DNA from: Candidatus Nomurabacteria bacterium
GTDB lineage: Bacteria > Patescibacteriota > Minisyncoccia > Phycocordibacterales > SBAW01
Assembly: GCA_943356495.1 (NCBI GenBank)
Contig: CALRFF010000001.1
Span: 92,864-156,863 of the forward strand
Direction: 5' to 3'
Length of the DNA: 64,000 nt
A program made the position numbers and the translations under genes. Every line of letters begins with the position of its first letter. Within the stretch, counting starts at the first letter, position 1. Shown here piece by piece: positions 41,203-61,529 of the stretch. Under the pieces are notes generated by a model, which worked only from the letters and a program-made list of their open reading frames with translations, did not search any database and was not told the origin of the DNA.

Positions 41203-42042
41203 ATGAAGCCTAAAGTCATTGCCATAGTAGGGCCGACCGCCTCGGGCAAGTCTGCTCTGGGTAATTTTCTTGCTACTAAACTTAGCGGCGAGGTTATCGC
41301 CGCCGACTCGCGGCAAGTGTACAAAGGCATGCGGGTTATCTCGCGCGCCGAGCGCGGGCACATGGTCGGTGTTGCCGACCCGCGCAAACAATACAGCGCC
41401 GGTGCCTACCAAAAAGCCGCAGAACGAATACTACGATATATCGTAGTATTCAAGAAAAAGGTGCCGATTGTTGTGGGCGGAACAGGGTTTTATGCCGATG
41501 CTTTACTGCGCGTTCCCCTGCCGCAAGTAGCGCCCAACGCTACACTGCGCACAACGCTCGCTAAAAAGACTCCGATGCAGCTGCTCGCAATGCTCAAAAA
41601 GCTGGACCCAAAGAGTGCCGCGCGCGTCGACCCAAAAAACATCGTGCGTCTGGTGCGCGCTATCGAGATAGTTAAAGCGTTGGGCAAAATACCCGCCCCT
41701 ATATACTCTTCCCCATATACCACGTTGTGGCTGGGGCTCCCAAACTCTAAAAATCTTACAGCCGGTGTCGAGGCACGACTCAAGGCCGGTATGGTAGCCG
41801 AGGCAAAAAAACTGCGCCGCACACTAAGCAAAAAACGCTACAAGGAGCTGGGGTTCGAGTTTGACCTGCTAGCCGACTATATAGACAAAAAAATTACCAA
41901 GCAGCAGTTAGTCGAGCGCATCGCCAACAGCGAACGAAAGTATGCCAAGCGCCAAAGCAAATGGTTTAAACGTTACAAAGATATACACTGGGTCAAAAAC
42001 AAAACAGAGGCGTTAAAACTTTCTAAAACCTTTTTACAGTAG
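41203..42042 (+). CDS. miaA: tRNA dimethylallyltransferase
   Basis: P-loop IAIVGPTASGKSAL and DSRQVYKGM motif. 279 aa. Confidence 0.9.
   Translation: MKPKVIAIVGPTASGKSALGNFLATKLSGEVIAADSRQVYKGMRVISRAERGHMVGVADPRKQYSAGAYQKAAERILRYIVVFKKKVPIVVGGTGFYADALLRVPLPQVAPNATLRTTLAKKTPMQLLAMLKKLDPKSAARVDPKNIVRLVRAIEIVKALGKIPAPIYSSPYTTLWLGLPNSKNLTAGVEARLKAGMVAEAKKLRRTLSKKRYKELGFEFDLLADYIDKKITKQQLVERIANSERKYAKRQSKWFKRYKDIHWVKNKTEALKLSKTFLQ
41426..41451. repeat. 26-bp perfect palindrome GAATACTACGATATATCGTAGTATTC inside the miaA coding sequence (member of a 3-copy family)
   Basis: Seen directly. Shares the 18-bp core ACTACGATATATCGTAGT with 60937..60964 and 61502..61529. Confidence 0.8.
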
Positions 42043-42113
42043 CGGGCCCACGAGGAATCGAACCTCGACTAACGGTTTTGGAGACCGTTGTTCTACCGTT
42101 AAACTATAGGCCC
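42043..42113 (-). tRNA. tRNA-Trp (anticodon CCA)
   Basis: Acceptor GGGCCTA/TGGGCCC, anticodon loop CTCCAAA, T-arm CGAGG-TTCGATT-CCTCG. Confidence 0.85.
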
Positions 42114-42137
42114 AACGGGCCAATAATAGCAAAAAAT

Positions 42138-42296
42138 CTACTTTTTGGCCTCTTTGTGAGGGGTGGAGACGCGGCACCAATTGCAAAACTTTTTAAGCTC
42201 GATTTTGCGGGTGACGAGCTTTTTGTTTTTGGAGCTCCAATAGTTAATGCGCTTGCATTTCTGACACTGGAGTTTTATAAGGCGGTCTTGTGACAT
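42138..42296 (-). CDS. rpmG: 50S ribosomal protein L33
   Basis: 52 aa MSQDRLIKLQCQKCKRINYWSSKNKKLVTRKIELKKFCNWCRVSTPHKEAKK with the two CxxC zinc-ribbon pairs. Not in the ORF track (under 60 aa). Confidence 0.8.
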   Translation of the reverse strand: MSQDRLIKLQCQKCKRINYWSSKNKKLVTRKIELKKFCNWCRVSTPHKEAKK

Positions 42297-42335
42297 GACC
42301 AAACGACTATACCGTATATGGCTTTGTTAGGCAAA

Positions 42336-42896
42336 CTAGAGCTTGGTCGCCCCCGGACAGAAGGAGAAGCCCAGGTTCTTGCCCGAGTAGATGCTGTTAA
42401 CCTGGCTCGGTATGCTTACCCAATAGCGCAAATTGCACGCCTGAAGCCCCGATAGGCCCAGCTTCGCAACCAATACCTGTTCTGCATGCTTGCGCGTGTC
42501 GGCAACCGGCTCTTTTAAAAGAGAAACGATAAAGCTCTGATCCACAGAGGTATATACGATGCTGAACTCCGGAAAGCTGTCGGTAGCGGTGGTTTGCCCT
42601 GCAAGATAGTAGTGTCCGGCATTGTTCGGGTCAGGAATCGTAGCGGCATCTTTAAGAAAATCCTTTACCGTGATGGTGCCGCCGAGCTCGGAGGCTACCT
42701 CAAACATGCCAGGCTCCTGTGCTCCAGTTCCTGGTGTTACCGAAACGCTCCCTCCGCTAGGAATATACGAGGTGCCATCGGCATTGTATGCAGGGGTAGG
42801 AGTCGGTGCCGAGGATGACCACAAAAAAAAGGCTGCGGCCAAACATACCCCTGCCGCCACCACAACCCCTATCGCGATTATCAGAGCTCGTTGCAT
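42336..42896 (-). CDS. hypothetical membrane-anchored secreted protein
   Basis: N-terminal TM/signal (ALIIAIGVVVAAGVCLAAAFFLW) then a Thr/Ser/Gly-rich soluble region. Confidence 0.5.
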   Translation of the reverse strand: MQRALIIAIGVVVAAGVCLAAAFFLWSSSAPTPTPAYNADGTSYIPSGGSVSVTPGTGAQEPGMFEVASELGGTITVKDFLKDAATIPDPNNAGHYYLAGQTTATDSFPEFSIVYTSVDQSFIVSLLKEPVADTRKHAEQVLVAKLGLSGLQACNLRYWVSIPSQVNSIYSGKNLGFSFCPGATKL

Positions 42897-42911
42897 AAGA
42901 GTTTAAGTATA

Positions 42912-43988
42912 TCAATATCCGCACGCTCCCGCAGTGCTCCAATTGCGGATGCCGTTCGGGGTGTTATTAAGCAGCTGCTGCGCCGTATACGTATTGCACT
43001 CGATATTTTGCGCCGCGCTCACACACTGCGCATACAATTCCTGGTCCGCCACGGTCGCCTTGTAGTTCTTACCGTTAAAGGCCTGCGGGCAATTGAGCTT
43101 TTGCCCGTTCGGGCACGAAACCGGGTTCACCGAAATGTTTATTTGATACATGCCCCACGAAAAAGATCTGTTATCGGCCGTAACGTCCGACTGGCTTGCC
43201 CGGCCGGGGTCGCAACTACTTTCTCTCTGGGCGATACAGGACATGGCCGCTGCATTGTTTCCCCATGCATTAGAGAGAGCTCCCGGCGAACAGTCACCTT
43301 TACCAGTTTGGCTGGGGGCGGAGAGTACCGCGTCGCTGACTACGTTGTCATTTTCATCAAGGCATTTCCCGCTGACAACCCGCAGATCTGAACCCGCATT
43401 ATCAGGGCATACCAAGCTGTTACTGGACGATTGCTGAAGCGTGGGCGCGCCTGTTAATTGTCCTTGCGCGTTGTAGCAGTAGCCGTCTGTCCCCGCCGTA
43501 CCACTTTGGCATCCGTAGGAAGCGCTATTGGTGGCCGGAGTAATTGTCGACTTTTGCACACCCGATTGCTGAAACAGCTGCCCTATGTTTTTGTCCATCG
43601 GCCGCACCAAGCCGATGCAGCTAAATGTGGTCCAGCTTTGATACCCCGGAGCAAGTGTTTTTAGCACCGTCTGGACAATAAGCCAGCCGGCGATTGCGAT
43701 ACAAAACCCGATAAGCACCGAAGTAAATATTTTATGCGCTTTTTCTATCTGGCTCGTATTTTCGCGATTGCTAAAGTACAGCCACCCCGCGTAAGAAAAC
43801 ATAATAGCCGCGAGCGGGATGGAAAGCCCGATAGCAAAGTTGATGATGTTTTGTATCAACTGGTCGAAGGTGCACAAGTTGCAGTCGACGGCACCTTGGC
43901 ACGGCACTAGCTCTGCGGCTAGAGCAACCATCGGGACCCCTACCCATACAACACCGGCTGCCGCATACAAAAAAGCACGGAGCTTCAT
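42912..43988 (-). CDS. T4SS-pilin-like (VirB2/TrbC-like) N-terminal domain fused to a C-terminal lytic transglycosylase (SLT/lysozyme-like) domain
   Basis: Signal peptide, CxxxxCxxC then two TM helices (IINFAIGLSIPLAAIMFSYAGWLYF ... VLIGFCIAIAGWLIVQTVL). C-terminal Cys-rich domain with AQRESSCDP and SFSWGMYQINI (ES...GLMQ-like LT motifs). Confidence 0.55.
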   Translation of the reverse strand: MKLRAFLYAAAGVVWVGVPMVALAAELVPCQGAVDCNLCTFDQLIQNIINFAIGLSIPLAAIMFSYAGWLYFSNRENTSQIEKAHKIFTSVLIGFCIAIAGWLIVQTVLKTLAPGYQSWTTFSCIGLVRPMDKNIGQLFQQSGVQKSTITPATNSASYGCQSGTAGTDGYCYNAQGQLTGAPTLQQSSSNSLVCPDNAGSDLRVVSGKCLDENDNVVSDAVLSAPSQTGKGDCSPGALSNAWGNNAAAMSCIAQRESSCDPGRASQSDVTADNRSFSWGMYQINISVNPVSCPNGQKLNCPQAFNGKNYKATVADQELYAQCVSAAQNIECNTYTAQQLLNNTPNGIRNWSTAGACGY

Positions 43989-44013
43989 GCCTTAATCATA
44001 CCGTAGAATTTTA

Positions 44014-44045
44014 GACCAACCTCTAGTGCGCCGGGGAGGAATTTC
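44014..44045 (-). repeat. partial duplicate of the tRNA-Tyr 3' end (about 17 nt; tRNA fragment/att-like direct repeat)
   Basis: GTGCGCCGGGGAGGAAT at about 44024-44040 repeats GTGCGCCGGGGAGGATT at 44212-44228. No complete cloverleaf can be drawn here. Confidence 0.5.
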
Positions 44046-44174
44046 TCCCTCGACTAAACCTTTGCCGTCGCAAACTTTTGTCTGGGCACCGCCTCGCTCC
44101 CAAGCGTGCTCGCTTGGGTTCCGCTCCGGCGTTCGAATCCTCCCCGCAAGATATCCCATATCTTGCTCCGCGCC

Positions 44175-44212
44175 ACAAAAGAAAAAACCCGCCAAAGCGG
44201 GTCTTTTCTTTT
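44175..44212. terminator. bidirectional rho-independent terminator immediately 3' of tRNA-Tyr
   Basis: ACCCGCCAAAGCGGGT hairpin flanked by AAAAAA and TCTTTTCTTTTG. Confidence 0.6.
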
Positions 44213-44213
44213 G

Positions 44214-44296
44214 TGCGCCGGGGAGGATTCGAACCTCCGTAGCCCGAAGGCGACAGGTTTACAGCCTGTTGTAATTGACCACTCTACCACCGACGC
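44214..44296 (-). tRNA. tRNA-Tyr (anticodon GTA), long variable arm
   Basis: Acceptor GCGTCGG/CCGGCGC, anticodon loop CTGTAAA, variable arm CGCCTTCGGGCTACG, T-arm GGAGG-TTCGAAT-CCTCC. Confidence 0.85.
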
Positions 44297-44322
44297 AATT
44301 GCACCAAGTGTGCAATCGTATA

Positions 44323-47016
44323 TTACGCTCCAACCTTCTCTTCTGCAACGACAGATTTTGCCACGCGGGTGCGTGCGGACTTTTTAACGTCAAAGGTAAA
44401 CTCCCCGTTTTTAACCCCTACCTCTACCGAGCCGCCGGAGAGTATCCCGCGGGACACCATCAGAGACGCGATTTTTGTAAGGATTTTGTCCTGTATCAGG
44501 CGGCGCAACGGGCGGGCGCCGTAGTGCGGATTGTAGCCTTCTTTAGACAAGTACTCATAGACCGAGGGTGCGATAGTTAGCGTAATATCCTTTTGCACAA
44601 GGCGCTTAACCACCTCGGTAACCTGTATACCGACAATTTCTTTTACTGCGTCGGGGGAAAGGATATTGAAGATAATTATCTCGTCAATGCGGTTAAGGAA
44701 CTCGGGACGGAAGAAGTCTTTAAGGCTCTGCTCCACCTTTTCTTTAGCCAGCACGTAGTTGCGTTGGTCGCTCGCTCCCCCGGCTTGGAAGCCGATTTGC
44801 TCCATCTTGTCGATATACTGCGCGCCGATGTTGCTGGTCATGATAATGATCGTGTTGCGGAAGTTGACCTTGCGCCCTTTGGCGTCGGTAAGCGTGCCGG
44901 CGTCCAATACTTGGAGCAAAATGTTAAACACCTCGGGGTGCGCTTTTTCTATCTCGTCAAACAGCAACACCGCGTACGGCCGGTGGCGCACCAACTCGGT
45001 CAATGCTCCGCCCTCTTCGTGCCCCACATAGCCCGGCGGCGCGCCTATAATTTTAGAAACACTGTGCTTCTCCATGTACTCGGACATGTCGACGCGGATA
45101 AGCGCGCGCTCGTCGTCAAACATAAACTCCGCGAGCGCTTTGGTAAGCTCGGTCTTGCCGACACCGGTCGGCCCCAAAAACATAAACGACGCGATGGGGC
45201 GGTTGGGGTCGGCAATGCCCGCGCGGCTGCGTTTAACCGCGTCGGCGACTTTTTGCACGGCCTCGCTCTGCCCGACCACGCGGCCTTGGAGTACCGCCTC
45301 GATACGGGACAATTTTTCCGCCTCCTCTTCGAGCATGCGCGAGACAGGCACGCCGGTCCACTTGGACACAATGCTTGCGATGTCGGGCTCGGTAATCTCT
45401 TCTTTAAGAATGCGGCGCGTGCTCTGCAGTTTTTTGAGTTTCTTTTGCTTTTGCTCCAGCTCGCGCTCAAGGCTGGGTATCTCGCCGTAGCGGATCTCTG
45501 CGGCGCGCGACAGGTCTACCGCCGCCTCGGCCGAGTCGGCCTCAATGCGCAGGCTCTCGAGCTCTTTTTTGATTGACTTGATATCCTGCAAGACCTGCTT
45601 TTCGTTCTTCCAGCGCTGCTCAAGCTCGTGAGTTTGTTCTTTAAGATCGGCGATATCTTTTTCTATCACCTTTACGCGCGCCTTGGCGGTGCGGTTGCCG
45701 TCCTCGCCCTCGGCCTCTTTGCGCAGAGCCTCTTTTTCTACCTCTAGCCGCATAATCCGGCGGTGGGCGTCCTCGAGCACGGGAGGTTTGTTTTCAAGCG
45801 AGATACGCAACGAAGAGGCCGCCTCGTCGATAAGATCAATCGCCTTGTCGGGCAAAAAACGGTCGGGTATGTAACGGGCGCTCAGCTGTACCGCCGCCAC
45901 CAGCGAGTCATCGGTAATATGCACGCCGTGAAATAGTTCGTACTTTTCTTTAAGGCCACGGAGTATCGCTACCGCATCGTCGGTACTGGGCTCCATTACG
46001 TATACCGGCTGGAAGCGCCGCTGAAACGCCGGGTCGCGCTCAATATGTTTTTGGTACTCGCGCAACGTGGTAGCGCCTATGACGTGCAGGTCGCCGCGCG
46101 CGAGTGCGGGCTTAAGCATGTTGCTCGCGTCCATAGCGCCCTCGGCCGCACCGGCGCCTATCATGGTATGTATCTCGTCGATAAACAAAATTATTTTGCC
46201 CTCAGAGCGCTCTATCTCCTTCATAATCGCTTTCAGGCGCTCCTCAAACTCGCCACGGTACTTGGTACCGGCAATAAGCGAGCCCAAGTCAAGCGACACC
46301 AGCTCTTTGTCGCGCAAACTTTCGGGGCAGTCGCCGGTTGCGATGCGCGAGGCAAGGCCTTCGGCAATCGCGGTCTTACCTACGCCGGCCTCGCCGATAA
46401 GTATCGGGTTGTTTTTGGTGCGGCGGGACAAAATTTGGATAACGCGTTTAATCTCCTCGTCGCGGCCGATAACCGGGTCGAGTTTGTTTTCCGCGGCCAT
46501 TTTGGTAAGCGAACGGGTGTACTTGTGGAGCGCGCGGTACTTGCCCTTTTCTTGCGCGGGTGCCTGCTTTTGGGTGCGTAGGTCGGTAAGCGCGCGCATC
46601 ACCGCCTCGCGGGAAATGCGGAACCGGCTAAGCATGTCGCGCGCCGCGCCCGGCACGTCGATAATCGCTATAAAAAGATGTTCGGTCGACACAAACTCGT
46701 CGTGGAGCTCGGTCGCGATTTTTGCCGAGCGCTCAAGCGCCTGCACCAGCTCGGGGGTCAGGTACAACTGATAGCTCGGGGACAGTACGGAGCCCGCACC
46801 CGGCGCCTCCAGCGCTTCGAGCACGGTGTCGGTTAACAGGGCCACATCAACCTCCATCTTTTCGAGCACGGAGGTAACCGGCGACTCTTCTTGCAGGAGC
46901 AGGGCCGCGAGCAGGTGCGCGGGGCTTACCTGATTTTGGCCGCGTTCGACCGCGAGCTCATGCGCGCGGCGTACCGCCTCTTTTGCTTTTGTAGTGAAGT
47001 GGTTGAATGGTGGCAT
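44323..47016 (-). CDS. clpB: ATP-dependent chaperone ClpB
   Basis: Clp N-domain, two AAA+ modules ([15 protein letters not shown] ... [15 protein letters not shown]) and middle coiled-coil. 897 aa. Confidence 0.95.
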
Positions 47017-47031
47017 AGAGTGTGTTGCGGG

Positions 47032-47817
47032 TTATTGCATCAGCGTGTAGAAGTCGCTTCCTATACTAAGAGAGTCGGTGGTGACAATGCCTATCGCTTC
47101 GCCAAAGACCGTAAGCAGGAGGGACCCTGGAGTGCTTGAGACTACGCTGGCCTCGATTAAATCGCGATGGGCCTCGGGGAGTTTTGCTATAACACCGGTA
47201 CCCACTGTGTCTTGTCCTACCCCGCCGATACGTATGACGGACTGACCCAAGTGTAATTTCAGCGGGTCTGCCAGCGCTACAGCGGTAATAACCGACTTGC
47301 TCGAGCTGGCGAGCTTAAGGTCGAGTATCGCAAGCGAGGTGGTGCCTACCGGTATACGCATAACGGCGGGGACCCGCGAGCCGTCGGGCAAGATAGCCTC
47401 GAAGTTTACGGTACCCATGGGCTCGAGACTCCCGCGGTCGGAGTACACGACGCCCTTAGCGTCTATAACAACGCCGCGGGCTACCAAGGTGTCCGGCTGG
47501 TTAAGACCGACCAAGCGCACAATGCTGCTTTGCGCTTTGGCGATAGACTGGGCGGCGAGGTCGTCGTCTTTTACGATAACGGTGGTCTCTTTGGTGACCA
47601 CTGCCGCACCCTGATTTTTAACGGTTGATACTATCGGAGCGGCCGGAACTACCTTTTCGATCGTGCGTTCGACTATTTGGTTGATAGTGCGGCTGATTTC
47701 CGGCGGGGCCTGATTCATCAGGGACACCGTGACAATGCCGGTAGCGATGGACGTCATAAAGCTCACAAGAAGCGTGAGAAGCACTATCTGATGTTTAGTG
47801 AGCTTCTCTATATCCAT
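47032..47817 (-). CDS. membrane-anchored trypsin-like (S1) serine peptidase-domain protein
   Basis: N-terminal TM (IVLLTLLVSFMTSIATGIVTV) then a chymotrypsin-fold-like domain. Start trimmed to MDIEKL to avoid overlap with the upstream gene. Confidence 0.5.
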   Translation of the reverse strand: MDIEKLTKHQIVLLTLLVSFMTSIATGIVTVSLMNQAPPEISRTINQIVERTIEKVVPAAPIVSTVKNQGAAVVTKETTVIVKDDDLAAQSIAKAQSSIVRLVGLNQPDTLVARGVVIDAKGVVYSDRGSLEPMGTVNFEAILPDGSRVPAVMRIPVGTTSLAILDLKLASSSKSVITAVALADPLKLHLGQSVIRIGGVGQDTVGTGVIAKLPEAHRDLIEASVVSSTPGSLLLTVFGEAIGIVTTDSLSIGSDFYTLMQ

Positions 47818-47857
47818 ACGTACCGTAAGTATAGGATATTTGTAGGAAAAAACAAAC

Positions 47858-49021: not shown

Positions 49022-49044
49022 CTGCTTACTATATACTGTTCTGT

Positions 49045-49542
49045 ATGCCGCTCGCTACCTACTATCTTCAGGTTGCATCCCCGTACCTTAGCGCCGGCGC
49101 GCTGCTGCTGGCGCTTATCGCTATCGGGTACGCCATTGCTCTTAAAATCCGATTCAAACGTCTTGCAATGGGCCGCAACGGCTCGATGGAAGAGACGTTG
49201 GGTATACTCTCGCGCGATACCAAAGAGCTGCAGGCATTCCGCACTGAGCTCGAAAAATACTTAAAGCTTTCTGAAACGCGCCTGCGCGGCTCGGTGCAGG
49301 GGTTGGGCGTCGTGCGGTTTAATCCTTTTTCCGGCGACGGCTCCGGCGGCAACCAAAGCTTTGCGGCGGCGTTTCTCGACGAGGGAGGCCGCGGCATGGT
49401 ACTCTCTAGCCTCTACGCGCGCGACCGGGTGGGCATATACGCCAAACCGGTTGAGGCTTGGGTCTCGACGTTTGAGCTCTCGGCGGAAGAAAAAGAGGCA
49501 ATTGCTAAAGCCAAAGAGCAGGTCGCCGCGCGCAAGAAATAG
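49045..49542 (+). CDS. DUF4446-family protein
   Basis: N-terminal TM then the VRFNPFSGDGSGGNQSFAAAFLDEGGRGMVLSSLYARD pattern. Confidence 0.55.
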   Translation: MPLATYYLQVASPYLSAGALLLALIAIGYAIALKIRFKRLAMGRNGSMEETLGILSRDTKELQAFRTELEKYLKLSETRLRGSVQGLGVVRFNPFSGDGSGGNQSFAAAFLDEGGRGMVLSSLYARDRVGIYAKPVEAWVSTFELSAEEKEAIAKAKEQVAARKK

Positions 49543-49546
49543 CTAT

Positions 49547-52549: not shown

Positions 52550-52604
52550 AAATTACAAAAGGATAATAGCATTAATTATTGTTTCATCATAGAATTTTGA
52601 TATC

Positions 52605-52688: not shown

Positions 52689-52720
52689 CAAAAAACCTTT
52701 ATATTGCAAGGTATTTTACC

Positions 52721-52750: not shown

Positions 52751-52816
52751 ACGGCAGAGCGACTTACTGTCGTACCCGCTCTTCTACACACTGCACATCC
52801 ACCTCGCCCAACACCC

Positions 52817-53017
52817 ATGGAGGGAACAATGGCGAAAAGTTCGAAGAAGGCCGGCAACTCGTTGTACGCTCGCTGCATGAAGGCGCTCGCGGGTCTTACG
52901 ACCCAAGTACGCCAACTGCGTAAGGAGAAATCCGAGCGCGACATGCTCGACGCACAGCTCGAAGCCGAACTCATCCCCATCGTCGAGGACGCCGAAAAGG
53001 CCCTCGCAGGAAACTAA
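52817..53017 (+). CDS. small coiled-coil hypothetical protein (66 aa)
   Basis: SD GGAGGG. Lys-rich N-terminus then an amphipathic helix (LTTQVRQLRKEKSERDMLDAQLEAELIPIVEDAEKALAG). Confidence 0.5.
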   Translation: MEGTMAKSSKKAGNSLYARCMKALAGLTTQVRQLRKEKSERDMLDAQLEAELIPIVEDAEKALAGN

Positions 53018-53030
53018 GAAAGGAACTGCA

Positions 53031-54380: not shown

Positions 54381-54390
54381 GGAGTAAGCC

Positions 54391-55173
54391 ATGACTTCTA
54401 CGGTGTTACTGGTCCTACTGCTCGTTATTGCGGTAGGCGGCCTCAGTGTTCAGTGGTACTTCGCGCGAGCGGGTGCCACACGCACGAGGCCGCTCGGCGG
54501 ATTTCTTACCGTCGAGCAAATCAAAGGGATTGCCATCAGCGGCGTCGTCACGGTCGTCGTGCTGCTGATGTTTAACGCCTTCCTGCCAAACGTCTCCGAC
54601 GCTTACGCGGCGCGCGGCGGGCCGCAGTTCCTGCTCATCGTCGGTGTGGTGTTTATCTGTCTGGCTTACTTTCTTGCGCCCAACCCGGGCATGCGAAAGT
54701 GGCTGGTCAGAAGCCTCGCCGTCCTGATGGGAATCGTGGTCCTTTCCTCGCTCGTGCCGGCCGTCTTTGTCGGGAAGCCCCTGACCGAGGCGGAAGTCCG
54801 GCTCGAGCAGGAAAAGAAGGCGCTCGACGCAAAGTACAAGCTCGCGTCGAGTGCCGCGACTCTCTCGCTTGCCGATGCGCAAGACTGCACCGGCAGGGCC
54901 AGCCCCACGATTACGGTCGGCACAGAGCCGCTCGAGGTAAACAAGGGCGGCCAGTGCAGGGTGGTGCTGCAGTATCCGGACGACGTCGTCGCCTGCTATC
55001 TCGTTAAGAGCGAGGGCGACACGGAGTGGCAGGGCCCTGTCGGGGCCACCTGTCCGGACCGGAAAAATATTACTCCGGTCGACGTCGAGTACATCAAGGC
55101 GGTAACGCCCTTCAAGGCGCGGGTGGTGCTTTACCCGCGCGCACCGACCCAGTGGGTCCGGTGGAAGAGCTAA
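54391..55173 (+). CDS. 4-TM membrane protein with C-terminal Cys-containing soluble domain (possible NfeD-like partner of the SPFH-like protein)
   Basis: Strong SD AAGGAG. Four hydrophobic helices. C-terminal beta-rich region with 4 Cys (QDCTGRASP...GGQCRVVLQYPDDVVACYLV...GATCPDRK). Confidence 0.5.
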   Translation: MTSTVLLVLLLVIAVGGLSVQWYFARAGATRTRPLGGFLTVEQIKGIAISGVVTVVVLLMFNAFLPNVSDAYAARGGPQFLLIVGVVFICLAYFLAPNPGMRKWLVRSLAVLMGIVVLSSLVPAVFVGKPLTEAEVRLEQEKKALDAKYKLASSAATLSLADAQDCTGRASPTITVGTEPLEVNKGGQCRVVLQYPDDVVACYLVKSEGDTEWQGPVGATCPDRKNITPVDVEYIKAVTPFKARVVLYPRAPTQWVRWKS

Positions 55174-55192
55174 GTACCGGCCAAACAACAAC

Positions 55193-55287
55193 GCGGCTCC
55201 CTACCAAGGGAGCCGCTTTTCTTTTTACATATAAAATTTAGAGACAAAAAAAACCGCCACCCTTTTGGGGTTGGCGGGGTTTTTTAG
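55193..55287. terminator. two tandem hairpin terminators between convergent genes, the second bidirectional
   Basis: GCGGCTCCCTACCAAGGGAGCCGC + TTTTCTTTTT, then AAAAAAAACCGCCACCCTTTTGGGGTTGGCGGGGTTTTTT. Confidence 0.6.
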
Positions 55288-55300
55288 TCGCTCGGGCTTG

Positions 55301-55585
55301 TCAGTACGCCGGCTGGTACGCAACTGCCGGTTGATACGCGACTGCCGGTTGGTAGGCGACCGCGGGTTGATAACCGCGCGGCGGTGTCACCGAACCGAGA
55401 CTGCTCGACATGGGCGTCGACATATGCCCCGAGCCCAAGTTGCTCGAGACCGCTCCGGGGCCGCCCACAACACCGAGATTGCTCGAGACATAGCCGGGGT
55501 GCGGCACCGAGCCGATCTCTTCGGCAGACAGCAGCGTCGTACCGGCGAAACCGAGCAGAACTGTAGCGATTGCAAGGTACTTCAT
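55301..55585 (-). CDS. small secreted low-complexity peptide with C-terminal (YQPAVA)4 tandem repeats
   Basis: Signal peptide MKYLAIATVLLGFAGTTLLSA. SSNLG repeats. C-terminus YQPAVAYQPAVAYQPAVAYQPAY encoded by 18-nt tandem DNA repeats (about 55305-55375). SD AAGGGAGGA. Strong promoter upstream. Confidence 0.6.
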   Translation of the reverse strand: MKYLAIATVLLGFAGTTLLSAEEIGSVPHPGYVSSNLGVVGGPGAVSSNLGSGHMSTPMSSSLGSVTPPRGYQPAVAYQPAVAYQPAVAYQPAY

Positions 55586-55617
55586 CGAAGTCCTCCCTTA
55601 GGTTGATCGATACCTCT

Positions 55618-55647
55618 ATTATAGCACAAGAGATGTAGTTTTGTCAA
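55618..55647 (-). promoter_or_regulatory. consensus sigma70 promoter with extended -10 (TTGACA-N18-TGcTATAAT) for the repeat-peptide gene
   Basis: Minus strand reads GTAGTTGACAAAACTACATCTCTTGTGCTATAATAGAGG. Confidence 0.6.
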
Positions 55648-55671
55648 CTACCTCTCTGTGACCTAAAAAAC

Positions 55672-55944
55672 TTAAAAACCGTAGGTCGAAACCGGCGTAC
55701 CCACCATAGTGCCTATCAGTTTAACAATCGCCCAAGAAGACGCCATGATAAACATACCCACCAAGCCGTAAAGCATGTGGCGCTTGCCGTCCTCTTTTTT
55801 GCCCGAGCCTTCGTTGGACAAGCCAAACATAAACTCGACTATGCCAAAGACAAACATAAGCGTGCCTACGGCAAACAATAGTCCAAGTATGGGGTTAAGG
55901 ATGTACTGCACCATCCTCCCCGCAAGCGCAGTAAGCTCCTGCAT
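55672..55944 (-). CDS. T4SS-pilin-like (VirB2/TrbC-like) small membrane protein
   Basis: 90 aa, two TM helices separated by a charged loop (FGLSNEGSGKKEDGKRHMLYGLVGMFIMA). Confidence 0.55.
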   Translation of the reverse strand: MQELTALAGRMVQYILNPILGLLFAVGTLMFVFGIVEFMFGLSNEGSGKKEDGKRHMLYGLVGMFIMASSWAIVKLIGTMVGTPVSTYGF

Positions 55945-55953
55945 AGGCGCTTA

Positions 55954-56298
55954 TCAGCGCGGCACCGGTACGCCCGGGCTTTGTACCGGAGCGTTTGCAG
56001 GCACTCCAAGCGCGCTTTGCGCCAAGGAGATAATGCCCCAGACAGACACCATAACAAACAGCGAGACGAGGCCCGCTATCATGATGTTCTTGCCTTCAGC
56101 GTGACCTTTGCCCGAAGAGCGGATGTATTTGATAAGACCGAAAAAGAATACGATAAGCGCTACCGTAATAAGTATCGGGATAAGCATGGCCACCAAGCGG
56201 CCGATGGCGCCCATGAGCGTCATGAGCGGCTGGAGCGTTTGAGCCGAGGCTACAAGCGGGAGCGCGAACAGGGCGACGGTAAACGTGAGTTTTTTCAT
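55954..56298 (-). CDS. T4SS-pilin-like small protein with signal peptide (copy 1 of a tandem duplicate)
   Basis: MKKLTFTVALFALPLVASAQT signal peptide, then two-helix pilin-like core (GLIKYIRSSGKGHAEGKNIMIAGLVSLFVMVSVWGII). Confidence 0.6.
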   Translation of the reverse strand: MKKLTFTVALFALPLVASAQTLQPLMTLMGAIGRLVAMLIPILITVALIVFFFGLIKYIRSSGKGHAEGKNIMIAGLVSLFVMVSVWGIISLAQSALGVPANAPVQSPGVPVPR

Positions 56299-56318
56299 AT
56301 AAAATTAAATAATACTGA

Positions 56319-56720
56319 CTAATTAATACAACCCCTATGGCAACGGGCTACGTGCGGTGGGGATCGGATAGGCGCCACCGTAGTAGTTAGGTACGCCCGG
56401 GCTTTGTACCGGAGCGTTTGCAGGCACTCCAAGCGCGCTTTGCGCCAAGGAGATAATGCCCCACACCACACCATAACAAACAGCGAGACGAGGCCCGCTA
56501 TCATGATGTTTTTACCTTCGGCATGGCCCTTACCGGAAGAGCGGATGTATTTGATAAGACCGAAAAAGAATACGATAAGCGCTACCGTAATAAGTATCGG
56601 GATAAGCATCGCTACCAAACGACCAATGGCGTCCATAAGCGTCATGAGCGGTTGCAACGTCTGGGCCGAGGCGATAAGCGGGAGCGCGAACAGTGCGGCA
56701 GTAAACGTGAGTTTTTTCAT
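56319..56720 (-). pseudogene. tandem duplicate of the 55954..56298 pilin-like gene carrying a 1-nt deletion frameshift (or sequencing error)
   Basis: First about 84 codons are near-identical to copy 1. The DNA differs at about 56446-56455 (CACCACACC vs GACAGACACC), shifting the frame into an unrelated Arg/Cys-rich tail. Confidence 0.5.
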
Positions 56721-56803
56721 GAAGTTGATATAAAACGGGTGCGCCCTAACTATAGCAGAGAACTGGGGGTGTCAAAATAACCCTGTGGACAGGGCCGTGG
56801 TGT

Positions 56804-57046
56804 CTAATAGAGATTAAGCGCTTCGCGCATAGTGGCCAGTATCCCCCACACGGATACGAGGACAAACATCGCTACAAGGCCCCAGACAATGAGCTCCTTG
56901 CCCTCGGCATGGCCGTGGCTGTCGGAAGACTCGTAGATAAACCGCACCAACCCTATAAAAAAGAATACCAGTGCAATAGCCACCAGTAGCGGAATAATCG
57001 TGTTGATAAGGCCGATAAACTTGCCTACTAAGGCGGCGAAGCTCAT
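56804..57046 (-). CDS. T4SS-pilin-like small membrane protein
   Basis: 80 aa. Two helices with charged loop (ESSDSHGHAEGKELIVWGLVAMFVLVSVWGI). Confidence 0.55.
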   Translation of the reverse strand: MSFAALVGKFIGLINTIIPLLVAIALVFFFIGLVRFIYESSDSHGHAEGKELIVWGLVAMFVLVSVWGILATMREALNLY

Positions 57047-57047
57047 G

Positions 57048-57491
57048 CTAGCAGTTATTGAGCCCCGGCGTGTTTATGTTGAGATCTTTTATCGTGCTTG
57101 CTATCACCTGCCCCAACAGCCATGCGCCCAAAAATATGGCAATGCCCACAACCGTGTAAAAGAGATTGAGTTTTGCCTTTTCTAACGCGGCGGGGTTGCC
57201 GCGCGCCATCACCAAGCGAAAGCCCGCGTACATAACAAAAAACGTGGCTATCGGTATCCCGAAGAGTATAAGTACGTTAAGGATAGCTTTAATGAGCTGG
57301 CAAAAACTCCCTGTTTTGCCCAGTGGGTTTTGCAGGGCAAAAATAGAGTTGCCGAAGGAGTCTTGGCTTTTTTGGACACCGTAGGCGTCTCCGGAGTTCG
57401 GCCCAAAGACGTCGGTAGCGGCCTGTACCGCAAAGGGAGCCATGGTAAGTAACACCAGAGAAAGTGCGGCAAATAAGAAAATCTTTTTCAT
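57048..57491 (-). CDS. T4SS-pilin-like protein with signal peptide and N-terminal extension
   Basis: Signal peptide MKKIFLFAALSLVLLTMAPFAVQA. Cys, then two TM helices (ILFGIPIATFFVMYAGF ... VVGIAIFLGAWLLGQVI). Confidence 0.55.
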   Translation of the reverse strand: MKKIFLFAALSLVLLTMAPFAVQAATDVFGPNSGDAYGVQKSQDSFGNSIFALQNPLGKTGSFCQLIKAILNVLILFGIPIATFFVMYAGFRLVMARGNPAALEKAKLNLFYTVVGIAIFLGAWLLGQVIASTIKDLNINTPGLNNC

Positions 57492-57494
57492 ATA

Positions 57495-58796
57495 CTACTG
57501 AAAGAAAGCGGCAAACTCCTGCGAGGCATCGTTGACTGCTTGTGACGGGTCGGTCTTGCCGGTTGTTACTGATTCTATCATTGCCTTAAAGATAGTGTCG
57601 GTAGACTCGGTGTTAGGGTCAAACCACCCGCGGGAGATAAGCGCCGATTGCGAAAACACCTGCGCCGCGGCATTGGCCGATGTATCTACCGCTACATCGC
57701 GGCGCACTGCAGGCAGGCCCGTGGCGGCCACCACCTGTTGGACGCCCGCTTGGCTTACCAGTTTTTGGGCAACCACCAACGCCCCGCCGGGGTTAGCCGC
57801 CGTGCGCGACACCCCCAAACCGGTAATGCTGCCGTAGGTCAGCCGCGGTCCGTTGCCCTGCAGTTGCGGCAACAGCGCAACACTAAAGTGCAGGTTGGGG
57901 TTGCGCTTAGTCAGTACCGGCAGCTCGCTGGCAAAACCAAAGTACACGGCCAAATCGCCCGCCACAAACGCTTCGGTCGAGTTGTGCAGGGAGCGGTTCC
58001 AGGTGTAGGAGCTTTTAGAGGGGTTGGCAAACTCGGTATAAAAACGCAGTGCCGACTCGGCGGGGTTGGTGGCAACGCCCGGCGCCGCGGTGCCGAACAC
58101 GCTGGCAAGGTAGCCTTGCTCGTTGCGGCTTACTATCGGGTCCCCCGCCTGCATAAACAGCGCAGACAATATCGCCTTGGCATGCGACACGTTGCCCCAC
58201 GCGCCGAGCGCCACCGCGCTGCGGCGCACGTTCTGCGAAGTATCTATAGAGGTTATTTTTTGCGCCAAGGTTAAGAGCTCGTTCCAGTACACGGGTGCCT
58301 GCGCCACCCCTGCGCCCGCCAACAAATCGCGGTTCCAGTACATGACCAACGGGTCGATCATAAACGGCAACGCCCAGCTGCCTTGGCTGTTTAAAAAGAT
58401 GTTCGCCTCATCGACAAACGAGTTGGTAAAGGTCGACTGTGACACCGAACTGTAGGGTATATTGAGCACTTTGTCGGCAAACGCGCCTATCGACTCTTGG
58501 GTCAGCATAAACAGGTCGGGCCCGCGACCCGCGGCAATGGCATTGATAAGTATCTGCTGGTAGGTGGCCTTGTCGGCCTCAAGATACGTAACGTCCTGAA
58601 AACTCTTATCAGTGGCGCGCAAGTTTTGCAGTACCATGCTCATTTGCTGCTCGTCTGCGGTGCCCCAAATGGTCACCTGCCCGACCGACGTGCTGCCGGT
58701 TACGCCTCCAAAGGCCGCAAACACGCCCACGCCGATAATAGTAAAAACCACAAATGCGGTGGTAACTATTATTTGAAAGGTGCTTATCGACTTCAT
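57495..58796 (-). CDS. extracellular solute-binding protein (ABC transporter SBP, family 1-like)
   Basis: N-terminal TM/signal anchor then a periplasmic-binding-protein-like domain. 433 aa. Confidence 0.75.
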   Translation of the reverse strand: MKSISTFQIIVTTAFVVFTIIGVGVFAAFGGVTGSTSVGQVTIWGTADEQQMSMVLQNLRATDKSFQDVTYLEADKATYQQILINAIAAGRGPDLFMLTQESIGAFADKVLNIPYSSVSQSTFTNSFVDEANIFLNSQGSWALPFMIDPLVMYWNRDLLAGAGVAQAPVYWNELLTLAQKITSIDTSQNVRRSAVALGAWGNVSHAKAILSALFMQAGDPIVSRNEQGYLASVFGTAAPGVATNPAESALRFYTEFANPSKSSYTWNRSLHNSTEAFVAGDLAVYFGFASELPVLTKRNPNLHFSVALLPQLQGNGPRLTYGSITGLGVSRTAANPGGALVVAQKLVSQAGVQQVVAATGLPAVRRDVAVDTSANAAAQVFSQSALISRGWFDPNTESTDTIFKAMIESVTTGKTDPSQAVNDASQEFAAFFQ

Positions 58797-58814
58797 ACCG
58801 GTATTGTCCCGCGG

Positions 58815-59351
58815 TTATGCGAATTTACGAAACAGTAATCCCCAATGGTAGGCGCCTGCGGGTGCAGAGCCCTCGGCGGTAAAACCGGCTTGCTCAAACA
58901 AACTGCTTGCCTGCGCGGCGGTGACTACGTGGTCGGGATGCGGACCCATGCCGCCAAAGGAGTCTTGCCAGTCGATAACCAACACCTGACCGCGGGGCTT
59001 AAGCAAACGCAGGGCCTCGGCGGCAACCGCCGCTTTGTCGTCGGCTGCAAAAAGGCTGTTGGCTATAACTACCACATCAAAGCTCTTGTCGGGCAAGTGC
59101 GTACCACCCACCTTTTCGATATTGCCGGCTACTACCTCGACATTGGTCAAACCCTCGCCAGTGGCAAGATTTTTAAGCCGCGGGAGTAAGTCGCGGTTGG
59201 CGTCTACTGCCCACACAATGCCGGGGGCGCACAACCTTGCCGCAGCGCGGGTAAAAAATCCCGAGCCTGCGTCAAAGTCGGCGACCGTCTGCCCTGGCGT
59301 CAGATGCAACGCCGAAAGGGCCGCCGAAGGGATAAGGAACGAACTTTCCAC
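58815..59351 (-). CDS. class I SAM-dependent methyltransferase
   Basis: SAM motif I VADFDAGSGFF, motif II, post-II region. 178 aa. Confidence 0.75.
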   Translation of the reverse strand: MESSFLIPSAALSALHLTPGQTVADFDAGSGFFTRAAARLCAPGIVWAVDANRDLLPRLKNLATGEGLTNVEVVAGNIEKVGGTHLPDKSFDVVVIANSLFAADDKAAVAAEALRLLKPRGQVLVIDWQDSFGGMGPHPDHVVTAAQASSLFEQAGFTAEGSAPAGAYHWGLLFRKFA

Positions 59352-59550
59352 CCCTTAATTATACATGACGCAAAATGTAGGCTCCCCACACCGAGTACGC
59401 CACGACCGCAAGCAGGGCCAAAGACACTACCCCTAGAGCGTCTTTTTGTTTGCCGGCGTGTTTGCGAATCGTCTCCATACCTCTTATTACGCACGAGTGG
59501 CATGTTTCTTACATGAAAATGCCCCGCACGTAGTGGTGCGGGGCGGCCGG

Positions 59551-59721
59551 TCAGGCTCGGACAGTGTCGCCGTTCGGCAGCGTCGGCAAAATTTCGCCCG
59601 GCTCGACTTTGTCGAGCGGGTGGGGCTGTTCGGCGCCGGGGCCCTTCTTGGCCTCGGTGCTGAGTATCATTTCCTTGATCGCCTCCGGTTCGTTGCGGCC
59701 AAAACCAAACATATTCCGGCT
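59551..59721 (-). CDS. small hypothetical protein (56 aa), high-GC
   Basis: MSRNMFGFGRNEPEAIKEMILSTEAKKGPGAEQ... Strong SD GAGGGAGG 6 nt upstream. Start trimmed from the ORF-track start. Confidence 0.4.
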   Translation of the reverse strand, partial: SRNMFGFGRNEPEAIKEMILSTEAKKGPGAEQPHPLDKVEPGEILPTLPNGDTVRA

Positions 59722-59774
59722 CATTGCTTCCTCCCTCGTCAAAACCGTCTGCCACTAAGATACCACGGTTTTTA

Positions 59775-59809
59775 CAAAAGAAAACCGCCCGCACTTTCGT
59801 GCGGGCGGT
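59775..59809 (-). terminator. rho-independent terminator, copy 1 of a duplicated 33-nt module
   Basis: AAAGAAAACCGCCCGCACTTTCGTGCGGGCGG. On the minus strand the hairpin is followed by TTTTCTTTT. Identical copy at 60293..60328. Confidence 0.6.
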
Positions 59810-59812
59810 CAA

Positions 59813-60256
59813 TCAGGCAATCAGACCTTGACGGTTAAACCAGCGCAGGATCTCCTGCCCCATAGGCGTGGTGCGGTGCATGTCGGCGGTGGTAAACCAT
59901 GCCAGCTCCTCGACCTCGTTGCGCGGGGTAAGCATGCCGATGTAGTCGGCGTCGTAGCAGTACATCTTAAGCACCGTGCCCTCGACATAGCCGTGGCACG
60001 GACCCTCAAACGTGTGGAGATGCTCGATAGTGTTGAAGAGGAGCTGGATGTCGCCCTCTTCGTCCGACTCGCGCATCAGCGCCTCGGCCTGCGTTTCACC
60101 CTCGTCGATCTTGCCGCCGAGAGTGTAGAAAAGGGTCTGGCCTTTCGACCGGGCAAACAGCAACGCTTGGTCACGGACCAGCGTTAAAGCAACCTTTTCA
60201 ATAATCCCACTGGGTGCCGTCTTGAGCGCCTTGGGTGCTGCGGAGGTGTCGCTCAT
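59813..60256 (-). CDS. NUDIX hydrolase
   Basis: Nudix box GGKIDEGETQAEALMRESDEEGDI. Start set at MSDTS with SD GAGGAG. The longer ORF-track start would run through the upstream terminator. Confidence 0.75.
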   Translation of the reverse strand: MSDTSAAPKALKTAPSGIIEKVALTLVRDQALLFARSKGQTLFYTLGGKIDEGETQAEALMRESDEEGDIQLLFNTIEHLHTFEGPCHGYVEGTVLKMYCYDADYIGMLTPRNEVEELAWFTTADMHRTTPMGQEILRWFNRQGLIA

Positions 60257-60292
60257 GTTGTGCTCCTCGTTGTTCATCTGCGCCCACCCTAC

Positions 60293-60328
60293 CACAAAGA
60301 AAAACCGCCCGCACTTTCGTGCGGGCGG
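60293..60328 (-). terminator. rho-independent terminator, copy 2 of the duplicated module
   Basis: Same sequence as 59775..59809. Confidence 0.6.
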
Positions 60329-60341
60329 CAACTCTCGAGGC

Positions 60342-60446
60342 CTACGCAGGCCAAATAGGCAAAAACGGCGCGAGATAAATCATCACGCCGGCGGCGATAC
60401 CAACCAGCTGCATGACAAGCTCCAGCCCAGCACCCGCACACATCAT
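60342..60446 (-). CDS. very small hydrophobic peptide (33-34 aa), candidate only
   Basis: MMCAGAGLELVMQLVGIAAGVMIYLAPFLPIWPA. GGGAG just upstream. Followed by a terminator. Not in the ORF track. Confidence 0.25.
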   Translation of the reverse strand: MMCAGAGLELVMQLVGIAAGVMIYLAPFLPIWPA

Positions 60447-60473
60447 ACTCCCGTGCGGCGTGGGCAAAGCGAG

Positions 60474-60626
60474 TTATCCACTTCGCAGGGCGTCTTCGAT
60501 CTCTTGGGCGGCCTCTGTGGTGCGCTGAGTTGAGCGCGTCGCCTGCCTGCGGATCTTCTCCGCCTGCTCGATGAGCCCTTGGTTCTGCACCGCGTTAAGC
60601 GGCGTAGCGCTTTCGGTATCAATCAT
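60474..60626 (-). CDS. small hydrophilic protein (50 aa), candidate only
   Basis: MIDTESATPLNAVQNQGLIEQAEKIRRQATRSTQRTTEAAQEIEDALRSG. SD GGAGAAGG upstream. Not in the ORF track. Confidence 0.3.
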   Translation of the reverse strand: MIDTESATPLNAVQNQGLIEQAEKIRRQATRSTQRTTEAAQEIEDALRSG

Positions 60627-60661
60627 GACCTTCTCCCATCTCTTCTGCCGCTACCTTAGCA

Positions 60662-60900
60662 TAAAAAAATCCGCTCGGTGAAGCGGGAGTACGGTCGCAA
60701 GACCTAGTAATCCTGACCGGCCGACGGAGGCCAAATCACGCGACACCGAGCGGGGCGGCCCTTGAGGAATTTCGTAGAGGGCCAACGTGGACCGTTATAG
60801 TTACGGTCTGCGTCAAGCGGCGACATACCTTTGATGCTTGCACACCTCCGGCATCCGACCCGCTTGCGGCAATGTCTAAGCGAGGCAGCACCCTCACCTT
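60662..60900 (-). ncRNA. candidate novel structured ncRNA (about 240 nt), unclassified
   Basis: ORF-free, about 60% GC interval bounded by an upstream palindromic terminator (60937..60964), a promoter-like element with extended -10 (minus strand TTTCAT-N16-TGcTACAGT at about 60905-60935) and a downstream terminator (CCGCT-TCACCG-AGCGG + ATTTTTTT at 60661..60689). Several internal 6-bp hairpins. No match to tmRNA, RNase P, SRP or 6S motifs that I can recognise. Confidence 0.3.
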
Positions 60901-60936
60901 CGACCGAGCTACTGTAGCACGCCCAAACCGTTATGA

Positions 60937-60964
60937 AAAAGACTACGATATATCGTAGTCTTTT
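60937..60964. repeat. 28-bp perfect palindrome AAAAGACTACGATATATCGTAGTCTTTT (bidirectional terminator-like) overlapping the DUF1653 stop codon
   Basis: Seen directly. Confidence 0.8.
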
Positions 60965-61235
60965 ATGCCTTGGTAAACCGCTCTACCTTTTGGCTCTGGC
61001 CACCCTGCCTGCCGGCAGGCAGGTCCACCACCTCGCGCCACTCGCGCAAGGGCCTCGTAAAATACGGCGCATCGGGTTGCTCGTACATCGGCTCGTACAC
61101 TACCATCCATTCATCGTCGTTGGAGTGGAGCGCGATTAAAACAACTTTGTAGCTGTCTCCTTTGTAGTGTTTATAAACCTCCCCCGCCTTAGGAGCGTCT
61201 GCGGGCACTGGCGGTATTGGGTCACCTTTGCTCAT
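60963..61235 (-). CDS. DUF1653-family protein
   Basis: MSKGDPIPPVPADAPKAGEVYKHYKGDSYKVVLIALHSNDDEWMVVYEPMY. The YKHYKG...Y...V pattern is typical of DUF1653. Start trimmed to MSKGD. Confidence 0.65.
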   Translation of the reverse strand: MSKGDPIPPVPADAPKAGEVYKHYKGDSYKVVLIALHSNDDEWMVVYEPMYEQPDAPYFTRPLREWREVVDLPAGRQGGQSQKVERFTKA

Positions 61236-61334
61236 AGCGTAAGTATAAACCGTGTTATAGTAATAAGGCGACGGAGGGGCTTCTCTCAGTTCGCGACGAA
61301 CCTTGGTTCCGAAGTGCGTCACGGAGGAACAACA

Positions 61335-61421
61335 ATGAAGATGGTGAAAAGTCTTCTCGAGGGTGCCGGACTCGGCATCGTCAAAGAGACCGGCGGTCTC
61401 GAAGGCTCCGGCCTGATCTAA
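61335..61421 (+). CDS. small Gly-rich peptide (28 aa), candidate
   Basis: MKMVKSLLEGAGLGIVKETGGLEGSGLI. SD GGAGGA 7 nt upstream. Strong terminator CCCCTCGCCTAGCGCGAGGGG + TTTTTTT downstream. Promoter-like TGtTATAGT at about 61253. Confidence 0.35.
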   Translation: MKMVKSLLEGAGLGIVKETGGLEGSGLI

Positions 61422-61458
61422 CCACCGACATCTGCCTGAAGGTCTCCTCAACAAATAC

Positions 61459-61492
61459 CCCTCGCCTAGCGCGAGGGGCTCGTTTTTTTAAA
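61459..61492 (+). terminator. rho-independent terminator after the small peptide gene
   Basis: CCCCTCGCCTAGCGCGAGGGGCTCGTTTTTTT. Confidence 0.6.
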
Positions 61493-61501
61493 GAATAAAC
61501 C

Positions 61502-61529
61502 AAAACACTACGATATATCGTAGTGTTTT
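61502..61529. repeat. 28-bp perfect palindrome AAAACACTACGATATATCGTAGTGTTTT between the small peptide gene and the gyrA 3' end
   Basis: Seen directly. Confidence 0.8.

Follow-up and report, generated by a model that had tools for sequence, protein, structure and literature searches.

What does a perfect 18-nt palindrome do when it occurs three times in 64 kb of a Patescibacteria genome, once in frame within a tRNA-modification gene and twice at the ends of genes? The stretch in question, referred to here as the window, is 64 kb of a 260.8-kb contig assigned to Candidatus Nomurabacteria (55% GC), and it carries the exact 18-mer ACTACGATATATCGTAGT at 41430-41447, 60942-60959 and 61507-61524, with no further match at up to three mismatches elsewhere in these 64 kb. 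Each 18-mer is the core of a longer perfect palindrome that belongs to no strand: copy 1 (26 bp, GAATACTACGATATATCGTAGTATTC, 41426-41451) lies in frame within miaA, where it encodes (I)LRYIVV(F), copy 2 (28 bp, AAAAG...CTTTT, 60937-60964) overlaps the stop codon of a DUF1653 gene (60963-60965), and copy 3 (28 bp, AAAAC...GTTTT, 61502-61529) lies between the ends of a small plus-strand open reading frame (ORF) and the convergent gyrA. An initial annotation of the window had recorded these coordinates, sequences, coding frame and flanks, all of which were correct on re-analysis, and had judged three such long perfect palindromes to be beyond chance, in agreement with the absence of any match to the 18-mer in 100 dinucleotide-preserving shuffles of the window. 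The first candidate function that it listed was an operator for a dimeric regulator, and our results point the same way: we propose, with a probability of about 0.65, that a subfamily of TrpR-like helix-turn-helix (HTH) proteins specific to Patescibacteria recognises the palindrome as its cognate operator, the gene for these proteins being itself bracketed by the same palindrome and their recognition helix covarying with the palindrome core. Patescibacteria are ultra-small, mostly uncultured bacteria that encode very few transcription factors, and to our knowledge almost nothing is known about how they regulate their genes. No description of this regulator–palindrome system or of the 18-mer was found in the literature searched, subscription-only papers lying outside the search.

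The palindrome is widely dispersed. The exact 18-mer was found in at least 113 stretches of a collection holding one genome per species (596 Gb), about 110 of which are, by record title, metagenome-assembled genomes (MAGs) of Patescibacteria, also called the Candidate Phyla Radiation (CPR), and three of which come from other taxa; here and below, locus, copy and per-MAG counts for the exact 18-mer are drawn from the matches listed and are lower bounds. Because our own arithmetic for a palindromic 18-mer gives about nine chance matches in 596 Gb, the matches outside the CPR are at chance level and those within it are not. Record titles, which may be imprecise for MAGs, place the 18-mer in Nomura-, Kaiser-, Adler-, Taylor-, Zambryski-, Moran- and Falkowbacteria, Paceibacterota and Saccharibacteria, from many projects, and MAGs with several matched contigs hold at least three to seven exact copies each. 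A single exact match was found among viral contigs, which is again the chance level and gives no link to phages. This distribution bears out the earlier suggestion that the element is dispersed and not simply a terminator.

Among the 141 copies in the matches listed, the flanks beyond the 18-mer, whose own apparent conservation is inflated by an exact-match search, vary from copy to copy yet are mostly mutually complementary, such that the perfect palindrome extends on average by 2.5 nt per arm in coding and 4.2 nt in non-coding sequence, against 0.35 nt in controls. Degenerate relatives of the 18-mer within the same loci are few; two-mismatch variants are symmetric in seven of eight cases, and single-mismatch variants show no bias towards G-U pairs. 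By crude gene calls (greedy ORFs), 49 of the 141 copies are intragenic, and two of the three frames through the 18-mer are open (reading TTIYRS and LRYIVV), the third holding a TAG. The intergenic copies lie between convergent genes in 25 cases, between divergent genes in 5 and between tandem genes in 42. A U-run stands on the correct side in 22 of 76 gene-end cases (~30%), which makes A4/T4 flanks like those of copies 2 and 3 typical of only a minority of family members; for these two copies, the look of a bidirectional terminator noted at the outset is plausible.

The gene most often found beside the palindrome encodes a TrpR-like protein. At about ten genome loci among the matches listed, two copies of the 18-mer stand 435-470 bp apart and flank an ORF of ~135 aa that starts with MPHVS, and when the ORFs beside the copies were clustered, this ~135-aa family was the largest (16 loci among the matches listed), with one palindrome before the start and another after the stop; in all, two copies flank such a gene at 16-17 of the loci listed. 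Two divergent bracketed proteins score 47.7 and 47.9 bits (E 1e-12) with the Pfam profile Trp_repressor (PF01371), the cut-off of which is 27, and precomputed PF01371 matches exist for most of 70 homologues. The AlphaFold2 model of the protein (136 aa, pLDDT 83) is all-helical with eight helices, and the top 34 Foldseek matches in the PDB are all TrpR, putative TrpR/YerC or HisR structures (3kor, 3frw, 1trr, 1tro, 3g1c), with target TM-scores of 0.65-0.78 and, for the best of them, 0.70-0.78 at a probability of 1.0. We regard these proteins as a separate subfamily because they reach neither of the NCBIfam cut-offs, for TrpR or for YerC/YecD: P0002 scores 27.1 against 42.2 bits for YerC/YecD (TIGR02531) and 22.4 against 67.25 for TrpR (TIGR01321), and P0041 and P0066 score lower still. 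They share an invariant N-terminal MPH(V/I)S and a C-terminal extension of ~40 aa, and clustering at 50% identity divides the subfamily (E up to 1e-10) into 1,663 clusters. The gene often lies near rplJL-rpoBC in different lineages, and no genes for Trp or His biosynthesis were noticed beside the palindrome sites. PADLOC returned only weak, non-specific HTH matches, and the HTH of the protein weakly resembles the N-terminus of the IS630 transposase (E 7e-4).

In some genomes the TrpR-like gene is present as two paralogues, both with palindromes on either side (L002:3459-5012, in tandem; L057 and L058; L068 and L099); they hold the exact 18-mer together with variants at one to three mismatches, the commonest being the symmetric ACTACAATATATTGTAGT, and there the palindrome gives the stop codon (..HYDIS*). 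Separately, MAG CAZROQ01 contains tandem arrays of three to five palindrome copies spaced 50-81 bp apart (L043:1-790, L005:5975-6140, L053:2562-2707, L102:36-163), one of which lies directly upstream of its TrpR-like gene, and its contigs break at copies.

The bracketing extends well beyond the exact 18-mer: more distant homologues, in records with the titles Giovannonibacteria and Zambryskibacteria, have variants of their own on both sides, GATACGATATATCGTATC and TGTACGATATATCGTACA. A metagenome scan for the TrpR-like gene, based on an alignment of 29 sequences, returned 80 loci, 70 of which could be evaluated for palindromes with arms of at least 6 nt located no more than 70 nt upstream of the ATG or ~110 nt past the stop. 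Perfect palindromes stand on both sides in 50 of these 70 loci, where by our own arithmetic ~0.02 per flank would be expected by chance, and in 48 of the 50 the two sides share the same central 12-mer. The palindromes differ by protein lineage (for example TACGATATATCGTA, TATGATATATCATA, AATGATTTAAATCATT, ATGATATATATCAT, TACTATATAGTA, AATACAGCGCTGTATT and ACTTCGATGCATCGAAGT), and they do so together with the recognition helix: the helix motif xSPST goes with the half-site TACG (palindrome TACGATATATCGTA) in 24 of 24 cases and xTxQT with TATG (palindrome TATGATATATCATA) in 10 of 10 (Fisher p 8e-9, with shared ancestry ignored). No cores of the other type occur in the regulator loci, TACG loci having 58 TACG and no TATG cores and TATG loci 20 TATG and no TACG. 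Solo copies are type-matched as well, at the ends of genes and within them: in-frame sites elsewhere on the same contig or MAG match the type of the resident regulator, both for TACG (L087/L118 with L060, L049) and for TATG, where the regulator and an ORF resembling arginyl-tRNA synthetase (ArgRS) that carries the site lie in L169.

The helix residues that vary align with Ile79 and Ala80 of Escherichia coli TrpR, which are among its DNA-contacting residues (PMC9413887). TrpR and HisR operators are ~20-bp palindromes with a lineage-specific consensus, and autoregulation is frequent (PMC9413887). The present system thus shares with the PF01371 regulators TrpR and HisR (YerC) the Trp-repressor fold, a palindrome of ~18-20 bp, lineage-specific motifs, a site at its own promoter and variation at the contact positions. 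It differs from them in scoring below the NCBIfam cut-offs, in the MPH(V/I)S N-terminus and ~40-aa C-terminal extension, in the bracketing of the gene on both sides, in perfect palindromes of up to 40 nt and in the many sites within genes and at gene 3′ ends. On these sequence comparisons, we classify it as a putative TrpR-family regulator–operator pair, the unusual architecture of which lies in double bracketing, in extended perfect palindromes and in sites that fall within coding regions or at the 3′ ends of genes.

The position of the two bracketing copies is constrained. Between the centre of the upstream palindrome and the ATG there are never fewer than 12 nt, with exactly 12 nt in 7 loci and 12-17 nt in 27 of 55, and a TTGnnn often lies 8-10 nt upstream of the 18-mer. 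From this distance analysis, the right half of the palindrome (TATCGT or TATCAT) would be the −10 element and the A of the ATG the transcript start. The downstream copy usually begins 0-10 nt past the stop codon and sometimes provides it (YYDIS*). Perfect palindromes at the regulator average ~22 nt, and the outer arms of the upstream and downstream copies can differ in sequence, each still being palindromic. That the downstream copies might form longer hairpins than the upstream ones was rejected (22.3 vs 22.9 nt, p 0.72).

Taken together, we infer binding of the palindrome by the TrpR-like protein and, with it, repression, a roadblock, termination and an effector. A dimer would set its two recognition helices on the TACG and CGTA half-sites, the centres of which are 10 bp apart across an AT-rich middle. 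At the regulator gene, the upstream copy would overlap the probable −10 region and the start of a leaderless mRNA, leading to autorepression, and the downstream copy would sit against the regulator's own stop codon. The three copies in the window would be solo sites of the system, with the regulator gene outside the 64 kb. A P0002-type regulator is their likely partner, because copy 2 and its flanks share 32 identical nucleotides with the copy 3′ of the P0002 stop codon (L122-L124), which comes from a related lake genome of 55% GC. Since copies 2 and 3 lie at gene 3′ ends and have A/T-run flanks, they probably double as bidirectional hairpin terminators. At copy 1, the bound protein might serve as a roadblock or as an auxiliary operator within miaA, if it acts at all.

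The initial annotation had allowed that the copy in miaA could be a lineage-specific coincidence, which is not what the in-frame copies suggest. Among the matches listed, genes for reverse transcriptases (RTs) of the diversity-generating retroelement (DGR) type hold a family-1 palindrome at 12 loci (Pfam RVT_1, E 8e-29), and, named from their translations, genes for leucyl-tRNA synthetase (LeuRS) at 6, MurD at 5, RNase HII (rnhB) at 3, TatD at 2, and TrmD, GatA, lysyl-tRNA synthetase (LysRS), MnmA, enolase and others at one each. At orthologous positions the 72 flanking nucleotides are 49-63% identical between lineages; the 18-mer itself is identical there by the design of the search. In MiaA, 94 of 120 homologues could be anchored on the PIVVGGTG strand, and the helix that precedes it reads LRYIVV in 2, xTIYRS (the same DNA in another frame) in 2, (M/T)IYH in 14, CSS(I/V)LQN in 14 and other peptides in 62. 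The DNA of one (M/T)IYH-type gene is ACTATGATATATCATAGT, a symmetric sister palindrome of the TATG type, so that one and the same helix holds either the 18-mer or a sister of it in different MiaA orthologues. The palindromes, read in different frames, have their centres 15-25 nt ahead of the conserved Pro codon and leave the length of MiaA unchanged, and proteins that are 74-76% identical have different palindrome types or none. Because different types in different frames thus recur at one helix with no change in length, the MiaA palindromes are repeated, independent installations in a tolerant helix and not a one-off coincidence. A comparable search for site turnover with a LeuRS fragment returned mostly fragments and Firmicutes proteins, with one informative match, P0384 (VRYIVQ).

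Two observations on these host genes stand apart. The CSS(I/V)LQN peptide corresponds to a near-palindrome, TTCCAGTGTTTTGCAAAATACTGGAA, at the same MiaA helix (L115:4560-4590, L205:10215-10245, and 14 MiaA among P0071-P0190); no second copy of it was found in the 20-kb loci, and one genome of this type also has a family-1 palindrome elsewhere on the same contig (L015). In the DGR-like RTs (LGNLTSQ, YADDF), the palindrome lies in frame ~83 codons before the stop (L017, L024, L037, L040, L045, L063, L064, L076, L082, L083, L089, L098), the peptide that it encodes is mostly LRYIVVFL, with TTIYRS in L063, and TTTTT often comes next, an arrangement by which palindrome and TTTTT could attenuate the RT gene.

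Several points weigh against an operator. One third of the copies are intragenic, which is unusual for a repressor, and the intergenic ones favour gene 3′ ends, as the excess of convergent over divergent settings indicates. The palindromy exceeds any plausible protein footprint, with outer arms that differ between copies, and the two-mismatch variants are predominantly symmetric; long differing arms and symmetric variants would be expected of a hairpin no less than of a dimer site. The covariation statistics ignore phylogeny. A consensus promoter scan of L122 called no sigma-70 promoter over the upstream copy, and a tblastn search of the window with four TrpR-like proteins found no regulator gene, the best match having E 0.9. 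The extended symmetry may reflect selection for a hairpin or cruciform, or template switching that perfects the palindrome around a selected core.

If the palindrome is an operator of the TrpR-like protein, its readable code (SPS with TACG, TxQ with TATG) links a short motif to a large protein subfamily, offers a rare handle on gene control in the CPR and could be tested directly with recombinant protein, with no need for cultivation. For annotation, the motif and its variants would point to regulator genes and to likely boundaries of transcripts across thousands of MAGs. Were the sites in miaA, leuS, murD and the DGR RT functional, operators would be written into the coding sequence of gene-dense genomes, and functional intragenic sites could also account for termination at hairpins without a U-run.

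We also consider, more tentatively and at well short of even odds, a larger role, namely a superphylum-wide punctuation of genomes by a TrpR-fold protein and a co-evolving perfect palindrome that brackets the protein's own gene. Sites would be placed time and again at gene ends and, in frame and with length preserved, within essential genes (miaA, leuS, murD, rnhB, DGR RT), where the bound protein or an extruded hairpin might conditionally block RNA polymerase or terminate its transcription, or the whole might be an HTH-based analogue of REP/RAYT systems.

A REP/RAYT-like system proper is, in our judgement, unlikely. Here the protein and palindrome would spread copies as a selfish or domesticated pair, or the bracketed gene would be a mobile cassette and the solo copies its landing or excision sites. 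The parallels with REP/RAYT systems (REPINs) are short dispersed palindromes that favour the 3′ ends of genes and seldom separate divergent ones, a protein gene in single copy with a palindrome on either side, and a palindrome specific to the protein clade with which it co-evolves. The contig breaks at copies, the tandem arrays in one MAG, the paired paralogues of some genomes, the repeated targeting of one MiaA helix by different palindrome types in different frames and the weak likeness of the HTH to the IS630 transposase would all fit mobility. However, RAYTs are HUH/Y1 nucleases, whereas the gene flanked here belongs to the Trp_repressor family only, and its all-helical product of 136 aa has no nuclease or recombinase domain. 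REPs are imperfect and extragenic and number tens to hundreds, whereas these copies are few and perfect (at least three to seven exact ones per MAG) and one third of them lie in frame, with no insertion or target duplication. The recurrent location of the regulator near rplJL-rpoBC across lineages suggests vertical inheritance, and the sole viral match is at chance level. A tiny mobile inverted-repeat element, as the initial annotation also considered, is less likely. Rickettsia palindromic elements (RPEs) likewise lie in frame within conserved coding genes, but they are insertions of 100-150 bp that add a peptide, whereas here 18-26 bp replace codons and the length does not change.

Improbable, too, is an explanation by RNA hairpins alone, serving termination or 3′-end protection with no protein partner, in which case the sequence would be conserved by accident or through a factor that binds RNA. 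It draws on the strength of the predicted hairpins: each window copy folds as RNA into 11-12 bp with −14.3 to −17.2 kcal/mol (z −5.1 to −6.1), and a terminator scan finds copy 3 terminator-like on both strands (−15.2 and −15.6 kcal/mol). The outer arms covary, the two-mismatch variants are symmetric, and the intergenic copies prefer 3′ ends (25 convergent, 5 divergent). Copies 2 and 3, whose 12-bp stems come with A- and T-runs and which lie between or beyond the ends of genes, do resemble bidirectional intrinsic terminators. Such terminators differ, though, in that their stems are not conserved in sequence across classes, and most members of this family lack a U-run, which stands on the correct side at only ~30% of gene ends; in the window, the Ts of copy 2 belong to its 12-bp stem and copy 1, an intragenic copy, has no U-run. 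Hairpins alone would also leave aside the third of copies inside essential genes, the conserved bases of the would-be central loop, the missing G-U bias of single-mismatch variants and the upstream copy that precedes the likely transcript start of the regulator gene. What a bare hairpin leaves unexplained above all is that the core tracks the recognition-helix residues of an HTH protein.

We assign a similarly small chance to a part in chromosome organisation like that of parS/ParB, matS/MatP or NBS/Noc, in which the TrpR-like protein would bind the sites for structuring or segregating the chromosome and not for gene regulation. The systems parS/ParB, NBS/Noc, matS/MatP and SBS/SlmA all combine conserved palindromes of 12-16 bp, few to dozens in number and often intragenic, with a dedicated HTH protein, and the present copies are likewise few per genome, strongly conserved and in many cases intragenic. 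Copy 1 lies ~1.9 kb from parB (38565-39575, upstream of miaA), and the gene order relA/spoT, parB, pyrF-like, a further gene and miaA recurs in L114, L115 and L205; the window has no canonical parS-like sequence (TGTTTCACGTGAAACA) within three mismatches. These organisers belong to other protein families, however, and ParB is separately encoded in the window. The sites turn over fast, as MiaA proteins of 74-76% identity with different palindrome types or none attest, unlike parS; contigs of 372-496 kb hold a single exact copy, and the start-codon geometry at the regulator looks like autorepression. Identity with parS itself was rejected, the motif being unrelated to TGTTNCACGTGAAACA.

A restriction-modification or methylation target, which had been among the first suggestions and is palindromic as such targets are, or a product of chance or assembly, can be dismissed as having a negligible probability: 18-28 bp far exceeds restriction-modification sites, the associated gene is TrpR-like and encodes no methyltransferase or nuclease, the shuffles gave no match, and the copies lie in contig interiors from many independent projects.

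Within the window, miaA (41203-42042, plus strand), which encodes tRNA dimethylallyltransferase (Pfam IPPT, E 2e-42) and reads ...AERILRYIVVFKKKVPIVVGGTGFY, hosts copy 1, and its protein is identical to the homologue P0071. Copies 2 and 3 bracket two ORFs, the DUF1653 gene (60963-61235, minus strand; Pfam DUF1653, E 4e-15) and the small ORF (61335-61421, plus strand), a candidate gene of 28 aa that is preceded by GGAGG and has its own terminator, a GC hairpin with a T-run (61458-61488). Copy 3 starts 14 nt past this T-run and ends 17 nt short of the stop codon (61546) of gyrA (61546-63939, minus strand), which was identified from its ORF and translation, its identity being read from the sequence.

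Several further features of these regions were seen. A DUF1653 homologue in another Patescibacteria MAG (L041:1847-2118) ends ~110 nt before a family-1 palindrome, in a layout like that of the window. An Rfam search found only tRNAs across the whole window at the gathering score and nothing relevant at 60200-61600 with E up to 1. The ORF-free stretch at ~60640-60936 that adjoins copy 2 folds better than shuffled sequence on both strands (z −2.6 and −2.7), and its minus-strand reading terminates in a hairpin followed by U7 (60686-60671); it has no match in Rfam and, lying downstream of the DUF1653 gene, may encode a small RNA of no known class. Within the DUF1653 ORF itself (61004-61023; ...LPAGRQ...) lies CCTGCCTGCCGGCAGGCAGG, a GC-rich perfect palindrome of 20 nt that is unrelated in sequence to the AT-centred family. 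A tRNA-Trp gene (42042-42113, minus strand) abuts the stop codon of miaA (42040-42042). Finally, an unrelated perfect palindrome of 18 nt, ATGCTAAAATTTTAGCAT, at 16303-16320 lies exactly between the divergent starts of two ORFs (15390-16304, minus strand; 16321-17097, plus strand) with TAAAAT 8 nt before each ATG, and from its sequence it looks like a bidirectional promoter for leaderless mRNAs, with a geometry akin to that at the regulator gene.

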